Part shown: positions 18,438-55,708 of the stretch, in pieces
Layout of the letters: each line of letters opens with the position of its first letter
How positions within the stretch are numbered: the first letter of the stretch is position 1
From: an uncultured Flaviramulus sp.
Lineage (GTDB): Bacteria > Bacteroidota > Bacteroidia > Flavobacteriales > Flavobacteriaceae
Direction: 5' to 3'
DNA: 64,000 nucleotides
NCBI GenBank assembly: GCA_947501105.1
Contig: CANMUP010000007.1
Span: 15,003-79,002, forward strand
The notes under the pieces: model-generated
Told to the model about the DNA's origin: nothing
Seen by the model: only the letters and a program-made list of their open reading frames with translations
Database searches by the model: none
Program-made: the position numbers and the translations under genes

Positions 18438-19111
18438 TGCACTGTTTAATTTTAGAGGATGAACAATCAGCACGAGAGATTTTGCAAGGGTATATAGACA
18501 AAACGCCTTTTATAAATTGTATCGGAATGTACGAAAGCGGATTAGACATTCCTCTAGAGAAGTTAAAGCGAGCAGACGTTCTATTTTTAGACATTCAACT
18601 GCCAGAACTAAACGGCTTGTCTTTTCTAAAAACTGTTACCCATCCACCAAAAGTAATCGTAACAACTGCGTATTCTAATCATGCAATTGAAGCTTTTGAG
18701 GAAGCTGTCTTAGATTATTTAGTAAAACCATTTTCTTATGAGCGATTCTTTAAAGCAGTCACACGGGCTAGGAATCAGTTTTTAATGCAACAGAAAGAAA
18801 AAACCGAACAGCTCTTTTTATATGCTGATAAAACAATCTATAAAGTAGAAATTGATGACATTTTATACTTAAAAGCCGAAGTAGATTATGTAAATGTTAT
18901 TACCAAGGATAGAGAAATCTTGATATCAGATAGTTTGCGAAATTGGAAAGATAAATTAGCGAATTTTTCTTTTATACAAGTGCATCGATCATACATTATC
19001 AATATTGATAAAATTGAAAAAGTTTACGGTAGTCAGATTTTTATCAATGATAAGTCGATTCCAATTGGTAAAACCTATAAAGAGCTATTCTTAAAGCGAC
19101 TAGATTATTAG
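18434..19111 (+). CDS. LytTR-family response regulator
   Basis: ILEDE, FLDIQLP, DYLVKPF; LytTR FIQVHRSYIINIDKI; ATGA overlap with kinase. Confidence 0.92.
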   Translation: MMHCLILEDEQSAREILQGYIDKTPFINCIGMYESGLDIPLEKLKRADVLFLDIQLPELNGLSFLKTVTHPPKVIVTTAYSNHAIEAFEEAVLDYLVKPFSYERFFKAVTRARNQFLMQQKEKTEQLFLYADKTIYKVEIDDILYLKAEVDYVNVITKDREILISDSLRNWKDKLANFSFIQVHRSYIINIDKIEKVYGSQIFINDKSIPIGKTYKELFLKRLDY

Positions 19112-19154: not shown

Positions 19155-19175
19155 ATTATACACGTTGCTATGTGC
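19155..19175 (-). repeat. Decayed half-copy of the attC-like site family seen at 52305-52402
   Basis: ATTATACACGTTGCTA vs ATTATCCCCGTTGTTA (52382-52397): 13/16 identical. Confidence 0.55.
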
Positions 19176-51082: not shown

Positions 51083-52294
51083 ATGAAGCATTTTATAACA
51101 GCTATTGTAATTCTTTTGATGTTTTCTTGTAAGCAAGAAAAAGCAAATAATAAACTAGAATTAGGAACATATCGAGCTGTTTTACAGGTAAGTGAATCTG
51201 AAACATTGCCTTTTAACTTTGAAGTTGTTTCAGAAACAAGTTTAAAAATTTTTAATGCTGAAGAAGTTATAAATGTTGATGATATTGAATATAAAAACGA
51301 TTCGGTTTATATTAAAATGTCAGTTTTTGAAGGCTATATAGCGGCAAAAATTGAAGATTCTAAATTAACAGGAGATTTTATTAAAACGAGTCTTAACAGA
51401 ATTGTACCGTTTGCTGCAGAAAAAAACGAAACTAGATTTGATGTTTCAACTAATCCGAAACACGATGTTTCTGGAAACTGGGAAACTGTTTTTAGTCGAG
51501 ATTCTGAGGATAACAGATATATCGCTAAAGGTATTTTTAAGCAAAATGGAAGCAAAGTTACAGGAACGTTTAGAACCACTACAGGCGATTATCGTTATTT
51601 AGAAGGCGTAGTTGATGGTAATCAATTAAAGCTTTCAACCTTTGATGGTGCTCACGCGTTTTTATTCACTGCAACAGTAACAGATAGTACTTTAAATGGT
51701 AAGTTTTACTCAGGAAACCATTGGGAAGAACCTTTTGTAGCTAAGCGAAATGAAAATTATGAGTTGCCAGATGCTAACGCTCTTACGTTTTTAAAAGAAG
51801 GTTATGATAAGGTTGCGTTTGCATTCCCTAGTGCTAATGGCAATATGATATCTTTGGAAGATGAACGCTTTAAAAACAAAGTGGTTTTGATACAAATTAT
51901 GGGAACTTGGTGTCCAAATTGTTTAGACGAGAGTAAATACTATGCCGATTTTTATAAAAACAATAAAACCAAAGATATTGAAATTGTTGCTTTAGCTTTC
52001 GAGTATGCTAAAACTGAAGCAGGAGCTTTTAACAGTATTAAAAGATTAAAAGAAAGAGTTGGAATTGAATACCCCATTTTATTAGCACAGTATGGTTCTT
52101 CTAGTAAAGTAAAAGCTCAAGAAAAACTACCTATGCTTAACCATGTTTTAAGTTATCCTACTACTATTTTTATTGATAAAAAAGGTGTGGTTAGAAAAAT
52201 ACACACAGGTTTTAATGGACCTGCAACTGGAGAAAAATATATGGAATTTAAAACTGAGTTTGAAGCTTTTGTGGGTGAGTTACTTAATGAGTAA
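51083..52294 (+). CDS. TlpA-family thiol-disulfide oxidoreductase lipoprotein
   Basis: Lipobox MFSC; QIMGTWCPNC; YPTTIFIDKKG.VR.IHTGF. Confidence 0.88.
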   Translation: MKHFITAIVILLMFSCKQEKANNKLELGTYRAVLQVSESETLPFNFEVVSETSLKIFNAEEVINVDDIEYKNDSVYIKMSVFEGYIAAKIEDSKLTGDFIKTSLNRIVPFAAEKNETRFDVSTNPKHDVSGNWETVFSRDSEDNRYIAKGIFKQNGSKVTGTFRTTTGDYRYLEGVVDGNQLKLSTFDGAHAFLFTATVTDSTLNGKFYSGNHWEEPFVAKRNENYELPDANALTFLKEGYDKVAFAFPSANGNMISLEDERFKNKVVLIQIMGTWCPNCLDESKYYADFYKNNKTKDIEIVALAFEYAKTEAGAFNSIKRLKERVGIEYPILLAQYGSSSKVKAQEKLPMLNHVLSYPTTIFIDKKGVVRKIHTGFNGPATGEKYMEFKTEFEAFVGELLNE

Positions 52295-52304
52295 ATTTTT
52301 GAGG

Positions 52305-52402
52305 TTCGTTTAACGTTTTTGTGTATGATTTCGTTCGTGTTTGAGTGCGAGGGTTTTCCGTGTATACAGAAGGAGTAATTAATTATCCCCGTTGTTAGGC
52401 AT
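52305..52402 (-). repeat. attC-like site downstream of the cassette gene
   Basis: Coding strand: GCCTAAC (RYYYAAC) - AACGG - GGATAATT … AATCATAC - ACAAAAAC - GTTAAAC (GTTRRRY) GAA. Confidence 0.65.
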
Positions 52403-53474
52403 TGCTTTTCTTGCTAATTTAATTCCTTCTAGTGTTTCTTCAGCTATCTCTTCATCCCAACCTAATTCTTTCAGGTCATCTATTAAAATGTTTTCAGCTA
52501 AATAAACAACAAGCAGTAGGGCTAAAAATCTTGAATTAGCTACCCATTCTTTATCTTCTGTGTCTCTTAATATTTTGTCATAGATAATGGATGAATGGAT
52601 TATTATTTTTTCTAATAATAGATTTAATTCTTCAATAGAATCAATATTTAAAAAGTACTTTGATATACTTAGTATGTTCGAAGAATCTTTATCATAATCC
52701 TCTTCATCTTCTAAGATTTCAAATCCACTTTTTTCACCAACATTGATTAATTTTTTTGTTAAATCAATATTTTCATTGAAATATTTCTCTATCGTTATTA
52801 AGTTTAGCTCATTGCTGACATTAATTTCATTTATTGGGCTATTAGAGTTGATCGCATCTTCTAGATTTTTGTAATCAACTTTTAGTTCAGAAAACTCTTC
52901 GTCTGCTAATTCAAATAATCCAGCTAACCGAAATAACTTTCTTCTTAATAATTTTGGAACTTCATATGATCTTTTATAATCTAAAGTATGTGAAATTGAA
53001 GCCCATGCGTGTTGTAGAACTGTTCTTACTTGTACTTCAAATTTATAATCTTTGTAGGGTTTCCATTCTGGTAGTTTATTTCTTGATTTATTCAAAGACA
53101 TAACAAGATGGACTGATTGATATCCAAATTCATTTGAATTTAAAGTTTGATTCTTGTCAATAGAATTTTTAGTATCTAATTCAAAATTTTCTTTTAAGAT
53201 ACTTGAGATTATTTCAATGTCTTCTTGGTAATATGTTACTATTCTGATACCTGTTAAGTCAGTAATATTTGTTAACGGATTGGAGTATTTGTTCTTTTTT
53301 GTTTTTGATTTAAAACTATCAAGTGATTTTGTTCTTGATTCTGTGAAATGATATTTAATATTTGAATCTGACAGAAGTTTTTTTATTAAATCTTCAATTC
53401 TGCCTGTGAAAGATTCAATCTGTGGTAATTTTATATTGTATTCTTCGATATGGTTCATAATATTTGTGCCAAAT
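52315..53474 (-). mobile_element. Integron-like single-gene cassette (no integrase in window)
   Basis: Flanked by two related hairpin sites with swapped termini. Removing it restores a site with a perfect 14-bp terminal inverted repeat. Confidence 0.6.
52379..53458 (-). CDS. RelA/SpoT-domain small alarmone synthetase homolog with C-terminal extension
   Basis: SRTKS..S, ITDLTGIRIV, GYQSVH, FEVQVRTVLQHAW..ISH. ATG 53458 preferred because the upstream in-frame ATG lies inside the recombination site. Confidence 0.85.
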   Translation of the reverse strand: MNHIEEYNIKLPQIESFTGRIEDLIKKLLSDSNIKYHFTESRTKSLDSFKSKTKKNKYSNPLTNITDLTGIRIVTYYQEDIEIISSILKENFELDTKNSIDKNQTLNSNEFGYQSVHLVMSLNKSRNKLPEWKPYKDYKFEVQVRTVLQHAWASISHTLDYKRSYEVPKLLRRKLFRLAGLFELADEEFSELKVDYKNLEDAINSNSPINEINVSNELNLITIEKYFNENIDLTKKLINVGEKSGFEILEDEEDYDKDSSNILSISKYFLNIDSIEELNLLLEKIIIHSSIIYDKILRDTEDKEWVANSRFLALLLVVYLAENILIDDLKELGWDEEIAEETLEGIKLARKAMPNNGDN

Positions 53475-53549
53475 GTTTTCAAGTATATGAATCCGTTTTA
53501 ATACTGAAACGAGTTCTGCACAGGTAATTTATATTAAACGTTAAACGAA
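53466..53549 (-). repeat. attC-like site upstream of the cassette gene
   Basis: Coding strand: TTC-GTTTAAC … ATTCATATAC-TTGAAAAC-ATTTGGCAC. Confidence 0.55.
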
Positions 53550-53614
53550 TTTAGTTGAATTTTTTTACAAAATCAACTAAGAATATACCAGTGAGAAACA
53601 AAGTTTTTAACAAT

Positions 53615-54085
53615 CTATAAATCGTCTAACATCAAATTATAATCGTATTGCAAGTCTTCGTGTAATGTTGCAATTATCTTTTTAGCTAAAAGGATTTGTC
53701 GGTTATAGGTGTTTTGCAATTGCGTGCTATATTTTATACTAGGTGAGAAGTCTTTCAGTTTCTGGCAAAAGTAGAGTAGGAGCTCTACTTCAGTTTCCTT
53801 TTTTTGAGAATACCGGACATACTTTTTTATGTTTTTTAAAATTTTGCGTACACTCTTTCTGATGTAAAAATAGCTTTTGATGTTTATGACTTCAAATTCA
53901 TCATCTACATAACCTTTAACAGATTCGATATAACCACTTTCGTTATGAGATTCAAACAATAAATAGGTGAGTAATTCTTTGTTTTCTTTTTTAAACCGCG
54001 ATAAGCGCAAGCAAAGCTCTTGAATTTCGGCAGTTGATAGTGTATTTAGCTCTTGTTTTATTTCTTTAAGCGATACGGCTTTCAT
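53615..54085 (-). CDS. Conserved hypothetical helical protein
   Basis: LCLRL.RFKKENKELLTYLLFE; YFYIRKS.RKIL; ETEVELL.YFC; EDLQYDY. Confidence 0.75.
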   Translation of the reverse strand: MKAVSLKEIKQELNTLSTAEIQELCLRLSRFKKENKELLTYLLFESHNESGYIESVKGYVDDEFEVINIKSYFYIRKSVRKILKNIKKYVRYSQKKETEVELLLYFCQKLKDFSPSIKYSTQLQNTYNRQILLAKKIIATLHEDLQYDYNLMLDDL

Positions 54086-54103: not shown

Positions 54104-55708
54104 TTAGTTTCCTTTTAATAAATTAACACTTACAGTTGCTAACTCGCTATTTGGAAATGTTGTAAAATAATTTGGGTCTGGATGCAAACCAGCTTCAGAG
54201 GCAACTCTATTAAAAACATCTACTTCTAAAATATATTGGTCACTATATCCGTGGGTAGCATCATATGCTGTTGCTGCTGTTTTGCCTAAATTTGATGCAG
54301 TTAGCTTTGGGTTTATAGTATGCAATTCTATAATTAATAAGCCAAACCTTTCTACATAAGGTTTCCATTTTTGTAAGTGCTCAAAAAGAGAATCTTCAAC
54401 TAAATTATTGCTAATATGGCTGCCTTGATATGTGTATGCCCCAGTAGAATTGCTAATTCTATTTGTTTCTGTTTTTGGTTCTTCCCAAATACGATTATGA
54501 TCTAAAAACGTACGGACGTTCAACAAATCTTTTAAATCAATATTGTAATCTGCTTTTAAGTCTTTTGCTAATAAATCAGGCCTGCCAATATCTCCCCAAA
54601 TCACTTTTGCCCAAATATCAGCTTTAATCAAGTTTGCTCGAGTTACTTTTAAAGCGGCTTGATTAAAATCGGCTCCAACTAATAATAATGGATGCTCATC
54701 AAGCATTTTACCGCGCAAGGTTTTATATTCAATAACATCAAAAATATGTTGTATAAAGGCACCATTGCCACAGCCCATATCTAAAATTCCTTTTGGCTGT
54801 TCGTCAATAGGTTTGTTGAATAGTTTAATGATTATTTCGTCTATAATTTTAAAATACGTAGAGTGAGCGCCTCCACTTCCCCAAACATTCATTTCTCTGT
54901 CTACATGCTTTTCGGTGTCGTTTGGTTCTTTAGTTTTTAAAGCTAGTGGGTTTCCAAAAATAAGATCGTCCAACTTAACAAAGGTTGGCAAATATGAGAC
55001 AGTTACACCATATGCGCTTGCACGTTTCGCAAAAAACAATCCTTCGTCTGTAAATTGATAAGTGTCATTCTTTTTTGTAAACCACCCTAAATGAGACAGG
55101 AAATCTAGTATTTTTTTAAAACTTTCTGGATTGCTATGGTACTCCTGAGCTCTAAATGATGCTTCCATAAAATATTTATGGAATAAGCCATTAACACCTA
55201 ATAAAACAATAATAGGAGCCGCAATAACACCTTCTATATGTTTTAGTATTTGATGCTCAATTGAATTGTCGTCGAAGTTTGTAAGCCCAAAATTGTTTTC
55301 AAACTTATTAAATATTTTTTCTAATGCATTAAAAGCATCTGGTCCGATACGTTCAGCTGGAAACTTAACCGAATAATTTAATAGGTTTATAGCATCTTTA
55401 TATAATGGAACAAGTTTAAAAGCCTTTTCACTTTGTGAATTTATTTCAAAACTTATAGTGTTATTTGTGTTGTTAATATGTTGAGTTAACCATCCTTGAG
55501 CACACAAAATGCGCAAGCTAACATTTAGATAGCCTTCGTTAGCATTGAATTGCTTAGCAATAGTTTTAAGAGTCGTTTTTTTATTATCTATCAAATATTG
55601 TAATGTACCTTTTTTATAAAGCGAATAGGCAGTAGGAGCTGTTGCTATACCATCGAGATGTCTAAAAATTGTACTTCGTAATTGTTCTTTATCTTGTTTG
55701 GTAAGCAT
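54104..55708 (-). CDS. Class I SAM-dependent methyltransferase, AprA-MT1-related, with N-terminal winged-helix-like region
   Basis: FRHLDG, NEGYLNV.LR.L..QGW, AYGVTVSYLP.F, HVDR.MNVWGSG, LDMGCGNG, RTFLDH, IELH. Confidence 0.75.
   Translation of the reverse strand: MLTKQDKEQLRSTIFRHLDGIATAPTAYSLYKKGTLQYLIDNKKTTLKTIAKQFNANEGYLNVSLRILCAQGWLTQHINNTNNTISFEINSQSEKAFKLVPLYKDAINLLNYSVKFPAERIGPDAFNALEKIFNKFENNFGLTNFDDNSIEHQILKHIEGVIAAPIIVLLGVNGLFHKYFMEASFRAQEYHSNPESFKKILDFLSHLGWFTKKNDTYQFTDEGLFFAKRASAYGVTVSYLPTFVKLDDLIFGNPLALKTKEPNDTEKHVDREMNVWGSGGAHSTYFKIIDEIIIKLFNKPIDEQPKGILDMGCGNGAFIQHIFDVIEYKTLRGKMLDEHPLLLVGADFNQAALKVTRANLIKADIWAKVIWGDIGRPDLLAKDLKADYNIDLKDLLNVRTFLDHNRIWEEPKTETNRISNSTGAYTYQGSHISNNLVEDSLFEHLQKWKPYVERFGLLIIELHTINPKLTASNLGKTAATAYDATHGYSDQYILEVDVFNRVASEAGLHPDPNYFTTFPNSELATVSVNLLKGN

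Follow-up and report, generated by a model that had tools for sequence, protein, structure and literature searches.

How does a single gene, framed by ends that resemble integron recombination sites, come to lie between two convergent chromosomal genes with no integrase nearby? The question is raised by positions 52305-53549 of a 64,000-nucleotide stretch of DNA, here called the window, which is C7:15003-79002 in the genome of an uncultured Flaviramulus sp. (G000, the source genome; 4.2 Mb, 32% GC; C1-C7 are its contigs, and G003 and G004 are sister species). An earlier note, made from the sequence alone, had read this locus as a solo integron-like cassette inserted into a resident attC-like site. 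Our comparative analysis indicates that 52314-53473 is most probably a single gene cassette held in one of about 30 promoter-bearing hairpin docking sites (hereafter platforms), and that cassette and platforms belong to an integron-like capture system of Flavobacteriaceae.

Boundaries of the unit and the platform that holds it

The outer arms of the unit, 52305-52318 (TTCGTTTAACGTTT) and 53536-53549 (AAACGTTAAACGAA), form the perfect 14-nt inverted repeat that was first reported for this locus. Because 40 of 2,000 mononucleotide shuffles of the 1.5-kb region also contained a perfect 14-nt inverted repeat, this feature is suggestive on its own; it gains decisive weight because its core recurs genome-wide in paired ends. 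At 16 or more G000 loci, specifically, an 11-nt core (CGTTTAACG) with the same two neighbour types forms inverted pairs separated by 0.56-2.8 kb, and at the 16 loci of the first count one or two forward open reading frames (ORFs) lie between the paired A and B ends. The expectation that other genes would be flanked by the same sites is thus borne out by at least 16 units. Profile hidden Markov model (HMM) searches of G000 recovered 32 A-type and 78 B-type sites, including those of the window unit. The A end consists of an outer flank (cTTGACTTTGTCAGAAAAAATcgaTAgc), TTCGTTTAACG, a stem-loop (GTATATAAATC...GATTCATATAC) and TTGAAAAACA, followed by TT, variable sequence and the start codon. On the coding strand, the B end begins near the stop codon as xxxxxxAAC-A.CGTGTATAAttCATTGCT and closes ~130 nt further on as ...AACCATACACAAACACG-TTAAACGAA-CCTTCAAAAA, where the right platform part TTAAACGAA is identical in nearly all solo units and the consensus CCTTCAAAAA follows the B end in most units. 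The attC-like sites are ~132 nt long, and the ~30 platforms are roughly 100 bp each and comprise a promoter-like motif followed by an imperfect hairpin with ends GTTTAAC and [A]TTAAAC.

An empty copy of the platform separates the resident from the mobile part. At C3:190398 on the minus strand, ...CTTGAAAAACA runs straight into TTAAACAAACCTCTCC, such that the A end is joined directly to the outer B end (...GGATTCATATACTTGAAAAACA|TTAAACAAACCTCTCCAAAG). The inverted 11-14-nt ends are kept in this empty platform and are therefore a property of the resident site; they do not move with the cassette. Joining window positions 53474-53549 to 52296-52313 in silico gave the same layout, and the hairpin that the earlier note predicted upon removal of the gene is therefore present elsewhere in the genome.

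These observations bear on the possibility that the units are non-autonomous transposons, similar to miniature inverted-repeat transposable elements or IS200/IS605 derivatives, whose inverted ends (TTCGTTTAACG) are read by a remote transposase (e.g., of the Y1/HUH type). Terminal inverted repeats of 11-14 bp, the dispersal of the copies and two Y1_Tnp matches in G000 speak for such elements, whereas the retention of the inverted ends in the empty platform already largely refutes them. In addition, there is no target-site duplication, as the junctions duplicate nothing beyond the shared TT; the mobile part has its own cassette-specific complementary ends (see below); the same 3' sites stand head-to-tail in arrays without inverted ends; and the Y1 genes lie away from the arrays, one of them being a 76-aa fragment. 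We regard a transposon origin as scarcely credible.

The boundaries of the cassette were set by comparison with the empty platform, with array sites (all ...ACG|TT) and with two other cassettes found at the same locus in relatives. The breakpoints fall at A53473 / T53474 and A52313 / C52314, so the cassette spans 52314-53473; the excisable unit proposed earlier, 52315-53474, had the right length of 1,160 bp and was displaced by one base. Both sites otherwise read on the minus strand as first described, including inner ends (ATTTGGCAC and ATGCCTAAC) that are complementary at 6/9 positions. Between the arms lies a single minus-strand ORF, and the GC content of the cassette is 0.279 compared to 0.317 in both flanking genes. 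The A-site HMM match, C7:68581-68446 (window 53579-53444), can be aligned with 15 other platforms. The parts of the locus are as follows.

51083-52294, plus strand: redoxin-like gene, the neighbour on one side of the unit
52296-52304, minus strand: conserved outer flank on the B side (CCTCAAAAA), one base past the stop codon of the redoxin-like gene
52305-52313, minus strand: right platform part (TTAAACGAA), with the R' half-box pairing with the outer GTTTAAC; identical at this locus in G000, G003 and G004
52314-53473, minus strand: cassette of 1,160 bp with 5' end TTTGGCAC..., cargo gene and attC-like site ending ...AAAAACG; boundaries by comparison
52314-52400, minus strand: attC-like B site, with R'' box, L'' box (GGGGATAA, which holds the stop codon), shortened centre, L' box (ATCATACAC), spacer AAAAAC and final G; matched by covariance model R1
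52394-52400, minus strand: R'' box of the B site, GCCTAAC, within the last codons of the cargo gene
52379-53458, minus strand, counted from the ATG: cargo gene of 359 aa, with a RelA/SpoT-type nucleotidyltransferase domain and a C-terminal domain of ~160 aa
53466-53473, minus strand: cassette 5' end (TTTGGCAC), the R' half-box expected to pair with its own R'' box; 6/9 against GCCTAAC(AT)
53474-53549, minus strand: left platform part (site A minus its last bases), with outer R box TTC-GTTTAAC, stem-loop GTTTAATAT...CATATAC, spacer TTGAAAAC and the final A before the crossover; A-site HMM match
53546-53553, minus strand: putative -7 element (TAAATTCG), overlapping the outer platform end, with 20 nt spacing to the TTG
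53574-53576, minus strand: putative -33 element (TTG) of the platform promoter, directed into the cassette; read from the sequence as TTG-N20-TAAATTCG
53615-54085, minus strand: conserved gene of 156 aa, the neighbour on the other side of the unit

The platform is more than a docking hairpin. Its A-side outer flank is conserved over ~30 nt as TTG-N20-TAnnTTCG, directed into the cassette, and 16 platforms share the conserved block cTTGACTTTGTcAgAAAAAAT...TAnnTTCG in their outer flank. The platform motif is close to the Bacteroidetes promoter consensus for the -33 and -7 elements, TTG/TAnnTTTG, and may thus act as a promoter for whatever cassette is inserted. The cassette itself is promoter-less, as originally read, and the view of the resident site as simply an attC-like hairpin has to be extended by this inward-facing motif. 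The platform stems vary by mutually compensating changes (GTATAT/ATATAC, GGATAT/ATATCC, GATAAAGT/ACTTTATC and GATATAAAA/TTTTTATATC). By BLAST, the platform sequence is present in 12-25 copies in each of six genomes of the genus and in 0 of 35 other genera sampled, and the same platform architecture surrounds homologous cassettes in Hyunsoonleella ulvae and Thalassobellus citreus. Some A-type platforms in G000 (C1:196072, C4:212840, C2:386982, C3:536220 and C3:160682) have no recognisable B site downstream and stand directly before ordinary-looking genes; these may be cassettes fixed after loss of the 3' site, or platforms recruited as plain promoters.

The orthologous locus in relatives gives a view of the same platform with other contents. 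In G003 and G004, where the flanking genes are 89-97% identical as proteins to those of the window, a platform occupies the corresponding position, its outer junctions unchanged (TTTGAGG|TTCGTTTAACG ... CGTTAAACGAA|TTTAGTTGAATTTTTTTAC), and holds different cargo: the ORF encodes 189 aa in G003 and 290 aa in G004 and is in neither case related to the window cargo. The complementary end pair is particular to each unit (TTGGCA/TGCCAA and TTGTGC/GCACAA). In genome G002 the platform beside the 156-aa gene looks degenerate and empty, and in genome G001 it is absent beside that gene.

End complementarity, crossover point and the cassette array

Each cassette starts with TT, and the next 6-9 bases match, in reverse complement, the beginning of its own 3' site (e.g., TTGTAGGTA/TACCTACAA, TTAGCAATT/AATTGCTAA and TTAGCACAA/TTGTGCTAA). 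In an anchored test at fixed register, we compared the 7 bases after the 5' TT with the reverse complement of the 7 bases before the B-site AAC in 15 units, 13 from G000 and two from the orthologous locus of the sister species. The mean match was 5.47/7 to a unit's own site (cis) and 2.50/7 to the sites of other units (trans), and none of 200,000 permutations scored as high. An unanchored version, which takes the best 10-mer anywhere in 140 nt, gave 7.4 in cis and 6.8 in trans and is noisy in AT-rich DNA. One unit of G000, at C1:785016, is the only one without end complementarity (0/7); it has five tandem AGAATT copies between the crossover point and the start codon.

On the platform side the TT is preceded by A (...AAAACA|TT), every B site closes with G (...ACG|TT), and complementing the B-site start always yields G. 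Because the base before the TT differs between platform and B site, we place the crossover between it and the TT. Similarity breaks at exactly this point, after the first base of the 3' box and directly before its TT, in the array described below (43 sites) and in 16 solo units alike. The breakpoints thus lie at the first base of the TT in [G/A]TT...AAC boxes in solo units and array, which agrees with the AAC/GTT box favoured by the earlier note; its G/TT crossover requires correction at the platform, where the base is A (A|TT) and the point lies one base from the place claimed. The cis complementarity therefore fits a circular cassette whose full hairpin is opened after the first base of the GTT box, and a crossover of the G|TT type known from classical integrons is supported here by comparative rather than biochemical evidence.

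One co-oriented array, at C5:410773-453020, accounts for about 43 of the 78 B sites. All array sites end ...ACGTT; the 6-10 bases that come after, when reverse-complemented, match the beginning of the next site, and the array therefore follows the same rule as the solo units. We next aligned 30 array sites, each completed with the 5' end of its own cassette, and evaluated the pairing of the two helices. Paired cells amounted to 95.5%, compared to 75.4% after shuffling and 22-40% with partners slid, and the covariation score was 0.489 versus 0.123 after shuffling (0/500 as high). The R helix comprises 10 pairs, of which 7 have 3-4 pair types, and the inner L helix is also kept by compensatory changes. 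The defining traits of attC sites are thus found here, i.e., an imperfect hairpin with paired R''/R' and L''/L' boxes of the form RYYYAAC/GTTRRRY, the boxes ending in AAC and beginning with GTT; the consensus also has internal loops AA/CC and a 3/6 spacer.

A covariance model of the sites was built, as had been proposed. The site family is present in 24 of 25 Flavobacteriaceae genomes sampled versus 3 of 16 genomes outside the family. Neither the HMM nor an unfiltered covariance-model search (nearest match 19002-19050, E = 6) recovered the further relic that had been reported at 19155 of the window. Within the array, consecutive cassettes are present twice over C5:413876-428074 with identical site ends (413876/419441, 414638/420203, 423889/427075 and 424758/427944), which suggests segmental duplication of two- or three-cassette blocks.

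From this comparative evidence, we propose that a recombinase would excise the cassette as a circle, thereby reconstituting a complete hairpin site, and that the circle would be inserted by one conservative crossover at the A|TT of a platform or at the first site of the array. In a platform, the inserted gene would come under the platform's promoter. The sites probably act as folded single strands, as attC sites do.

Might the pattern instead have arisen without any dedicated recombination today, from terminator or regulatory hairpin repeats reshuffled by homologous recombination or gene conversion, with the system perhaps extinct in the genus? This would accommodate the decay of the window site, the persistence of sites in G003 with no recombinase and in G004 with truncated copies, and the divergence of the platform hairpin itself at orthologous loci. 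Homologous exchange, however, yields no cassette-specific complementarity of unit ends and leaves the one-base-sharp breakpoint in 43 array sites unexplained. Moreover, an intact 380-aa recombinase gene (described below) is kept in G000 and in genome G005, with 96% identity between the two species, and is 74-97% conserved across many genera. We therefore consider this explanation unlikely, while giving it more room than a transposon origin.

The decay of the window's own copy deserves a closer look. Its B site measures 92 nt from the R'' AAC box to the outer end, compared to 130-133 nt in most units, and its R1 covariance match (52310-52398, minus strand; 28.1 bits, E 3.4e-4) has ~38 central model positions absent and the R helix unpaired; other units, such as C2:228691-230357, have intact sites. 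In the anchored end test it scored 4/7 against the family mean of 5.47/7, among the weakest units. As the 3' site has lost ~40 central bases and the end boxes pair at only 6/9, the insertion is probably old, and the cassette may be fixed and no longer excisable, with its gene intact. The second self-complementary site that the earlier note expected upon circularisation is accordingly supported by the end complementarity of the family and not by the R helix of the window's own junction.

Several points weigh against the cassette reading. The circular junction of the window unit does not fold into the terminal R helix, and single-sequence DNA folds of the window sites are weak, with z from 0 to -1.8 and no significant stability, so that the argument for structure rests on covariation. 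The stem-loop of the platform differs at the orthologous locus, being of the long-loop GTTTAATAT... type in G000 and CGGATAT...ATATCCG in G003 and G004, with flanks identical up to TTCGTTTAACGT despite this difference (window 53474-53549 versus L012 6130-6200 and L013 1255-1315). A single crossover at A|TT cannot explain such a hairpin swap, which might instead reflect exchange of the entire unit, gene conversion between copies of the platform, or an additional crossover at CG|TTTAAC. G003 has 31 attC-like sites and 19 platforms and no member of the recombinase family, and the recombinase itself is assigned because it adjoins co-oriented arrays, not because of clean co-occurrence with the sites. 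Both the promoter activity of the platform and the single-stranded mode of recombination are inferred. Finally, the case for recombination is indirect, and the stretch was found in no public sequencing run (best share of words 0.12).

A candidate recombinase and the relation to known systems

The earlier note had left the mobilising enzyme unnamed. A strong candidate is a 380-aa tyrosine recombinase encoded at C5:409163-410305, with the array beginning 60 nt past its stop codon in the same orientation, and the notion of a dispersed cassette system mobilised in trans is supported. The protein matches Phage_integrase (2.8e-42) and a SAM-like domain and has an extra N-terminal region of 110 aa. 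It scores above the cut-off of the XerA model NF040815 (241 bits versus 220) and below that of the integron-integrase model TIGR02249 (210.7 bits versus 265). The match to the latter falls into two pieces (model positions 8-179 and 240-313), and 18 aa cover the 60 positions 180-239, the region of the IntI-specific insert. Its nearest solved structure is Pyrococcus XerA (4A8E), and the IntI4 structure (2A3V) aligns in two stretches only. No protein of G000 reaches the integron-integrase cut-off, i.e., no true IntI was detected in this genome.

The association of this gene with arrays is recurrent. In G001, G002, G004 (two decayed copies) and G016, relatives with 37-67% identity immediately precede co-oriented arrays, which amounts to five loci in four related genomes. 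At the 80 public loci found with the recombinase protein, 78 of 84 site-model matches lie downstream on the gene's strand, though far more upstream sequence was searched, and recombinase and array adjoin in ~32 public loci. Among the genera represented by the 80 loci are Wocania, Cellulophaga, Maribacter, Zobellia, Aquimarina, Leeuwenhoekiella and Marivirga, and relatives at 46-60% identity occur in metagenome-assembled genomes (MAGs) of Bacteroidales, Paludibacteraceae, Prolixibacteraceae and Cytophagales. Many public contigs (L044-L123) end within a few hundred bases downstream of the recombinase gene, as would be expected ahead of a repeat array; draft genomes and MAGs therefore systematically lose or fragment the arrays.

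It had been suggested that site counts be correlated with a tyrosine recombinase or with Y1/HUH genes. A clean presence/absence correlation with the recombinase failed, since sites persist in genomes without the enzyme, whereas the adjacency of recombinase and array held and the Y1 genes are not near the arrays. G004 has only truncated copies; the recombinase has been repeatedly lost while sites persist, and the enzyme-less site sets look like stranded relics. [quoted passage not shown]

Could the window cassette nevertheless have been placed by a true IntI, from a lost or foreign integron or at an attG-type site? Solitary cassettes without an integrase are common in genomes, and the end boxes here fit both RYYYAAC/GTTRRRY and a G|TT-type crossover. 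Yet the best candidate enzyme lacks the IntI-specific region, and the sites, at ~132 nt with 3/6-nt spacers, have a family-specific sequence. Furthermore, the insertions target a repeated, structured and promoter-bearing platform, not loose GTT sites, and Bacteroidetes have been reported to be nearly free of integrons. A classical integron cassette of the kind seen in SALINs (Loot et al., bioRxiv 10.1101/2022.09.11.507474) is thus a very improbable explanation.

The likeness to integrons is nonetheless extensive. Integrons are the textbook device for gene capture and shuffling and are defined by IntI, whose extra domain is thought to permit recombination of folded single-stranded sites. Like integrons, including sedentary chromosomal ones and SALIN/attG cases, the system studied here has promoter-less cassettes, mostly of one gene; imperfect hairpin sites with R''/L''/L'/R' boxes, the R boxes being ...AAC / GTT...; a crossover after the first base of GTT; and a cassette 5' end complementary to the start of its own site. 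As with Vibrio repeats, the sites are long and uniform per host, and the stop codon lies inside the site. In both cases an array lies beside a tyrosine recombinase and carries diverse cargo, mostly of unknown function. The differences lie in the enzyme and the layout. The recombinase here is XerA-like, with the 110-aa N-terminal extension and no IntI-specific insert, the latter being an extra domain located near patch III (Messier & Roy 2001, cited by PMC9668308). Its gene is upstream of and co-oriented with the array, whereas integron intI is divergent from attI and Pc; the spacers are 3/6 nt; and ~30 dispersed docking hairpins with their own promoter motif take single cassettes, whereas an integron has one attI and one Pc. 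The system therefore works like an integron and departs from one in two defining respects, having neither IntI nor the divergent intI-attI-Pc layout.

Among published systems, rAID-1 of gut Bacteroidales comes closest (Ross et al. 2019, bioRxiv 10.1101/471110; PMC12247911). It shares with the present system the Bacteroidetes phylum and a XerD-family tyrosine recombinase located 5' of a co-directional array of short genes of low G+C, and its authors liken the repetitive intergenic sequences to integrons (bioRxiv 10.1101/471110). The rAID-1 definition of two or more co-directional low-G+C downstream genes with conserved intergenic motifs applies here as well, given ~43 co-oriented sites and a window cassette of lower GC than its flanks. 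In contrast, rAID-1 is also defined by at least 44% identity to BF9343_RS08045 of B. fragilis and by immunity-gene cargo, and the papers cited here are silent on hairpin structure, crossover point, cassette boundaries and dispersed platforms; the mechanism of its biogenesis was still called unclear in 2025. The pdif modules of Acinetobacter plasmids resemble the present units as small gene modules with inverted sites that are moved in trans by remote Xer-type recombinases (PMC7399989). They differ in that pdif sites are 28-bp double-stranded XerC/XerD sites, compared to hairpins of 80-140 nt with covarying stems here, where the unit ends also differ in kind and head-to-tail arrays adjoin a dedicated recombinase. 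A dif-like reading of TTCGTTTAACG-TTGTAT-ATAAATCATTA was dropped, as its arms are unrelated to each other.

A published description of the flavobacterial system, its hairpin sites, crossover or dispersed platforms was not found in the literature searched, which is not proof of absence. On balance, we lean slightly towards the broader view that Bacteroidota, and marine Flavobacteriaceae above all, carry a second, IntI-independent lineage of integron type, in which a XerA-like enzyme without the IntI insert acts on folded hairpins of ~132 nt, dozens of promoter-bearing docking sites allow cassettes from a silent store to be expressed singly around the chromosome, and rAID-1 is the same machine. 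The full cassette logic appears here with a Xer-type enzyme, together with dispersed single-cassette expression sockets that integrons lack. If this view is correct, it would supply a mechanism for rAID-1 arrays, and hairpin-site cassette capture would either have evolved twice or predate the IntI insert. Marine bacteria would also offer a large pool of accessory and candidate defence genes that is easy to delimit, and the small modules of promoter plus docking site might serve as a genetic tool for Bacteroidota.

Cargo and neighbouring sequences

The 359-aa cargo protein has a small-alarmone-synthetase-like domain (Pfam RelA_SpoT, 1.6e-20). Among solved structures it matches YjbM (3.5e-14) and, more weakly, the fused toxin-antitoxin CapRel (7ZTB, 2e-5); its C-terminal ~160 aa match no known family. 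PADLOC returned the candidate PDC-S33 (3e-19), and the cargo is a candidate toxin-like or defence gene. This RelA/SpoT gene is absent from all 40 related genomes searched, and homologues with 36-52% identity turn up sporadically in Flavobacteriaceae, Bacillales and Vibrio, in many cases on ~1.2-kb contigs. Homologues of 43-45% identity are themselves cassettes, either in arrays (Winogradskyella and Neotamlana) or in platforms (Hyunsoonleella and Thalassobellus). Those of Winogradskyella undariae and Neotamlana laminarinivorans have strong R1 sites directly before and after them, and the Hyunsoonleella homologue lies in a platform with perfect 9-nt end complementarity (TTAGCTGTA/TACAGCTAA). The occurrence of homologues in arrays and platforms of other genera thus indicates that the gene family travels as a cassette.

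More broadly, most of 28 cargo proteins scanned had no Pfam family, and the rest matched BLUF, fatty-acid hydroxylase, EEP nuclease/phosphatase, WYL-HTH, RDD, TPR and RelA_SpoT. Immunity families were not recognised among these 28 proteins in the Pfam scan, and no immunity-specific library was searched.

Beyond the 156-aa gene, window positions 54104-55708 (minus strand) encode a stand-alone 534-aa protein with all three AprA-type domains (AprA_N, WH_AprA and the AprA MT2-like methyltransferase; 2e-121), with no polyketide synthase in view; the gene adjoins a 2-oxoacid dehydrogenase E1-like gene. The interval from the 156-aa gene to the platform contains a 12-nt inverted repeat (TTAGTTGAATTT/AAAATCAACTAA, window 53551-53580), which overlaps the putative -33 region and may be the terminator of the 156-aa gene.

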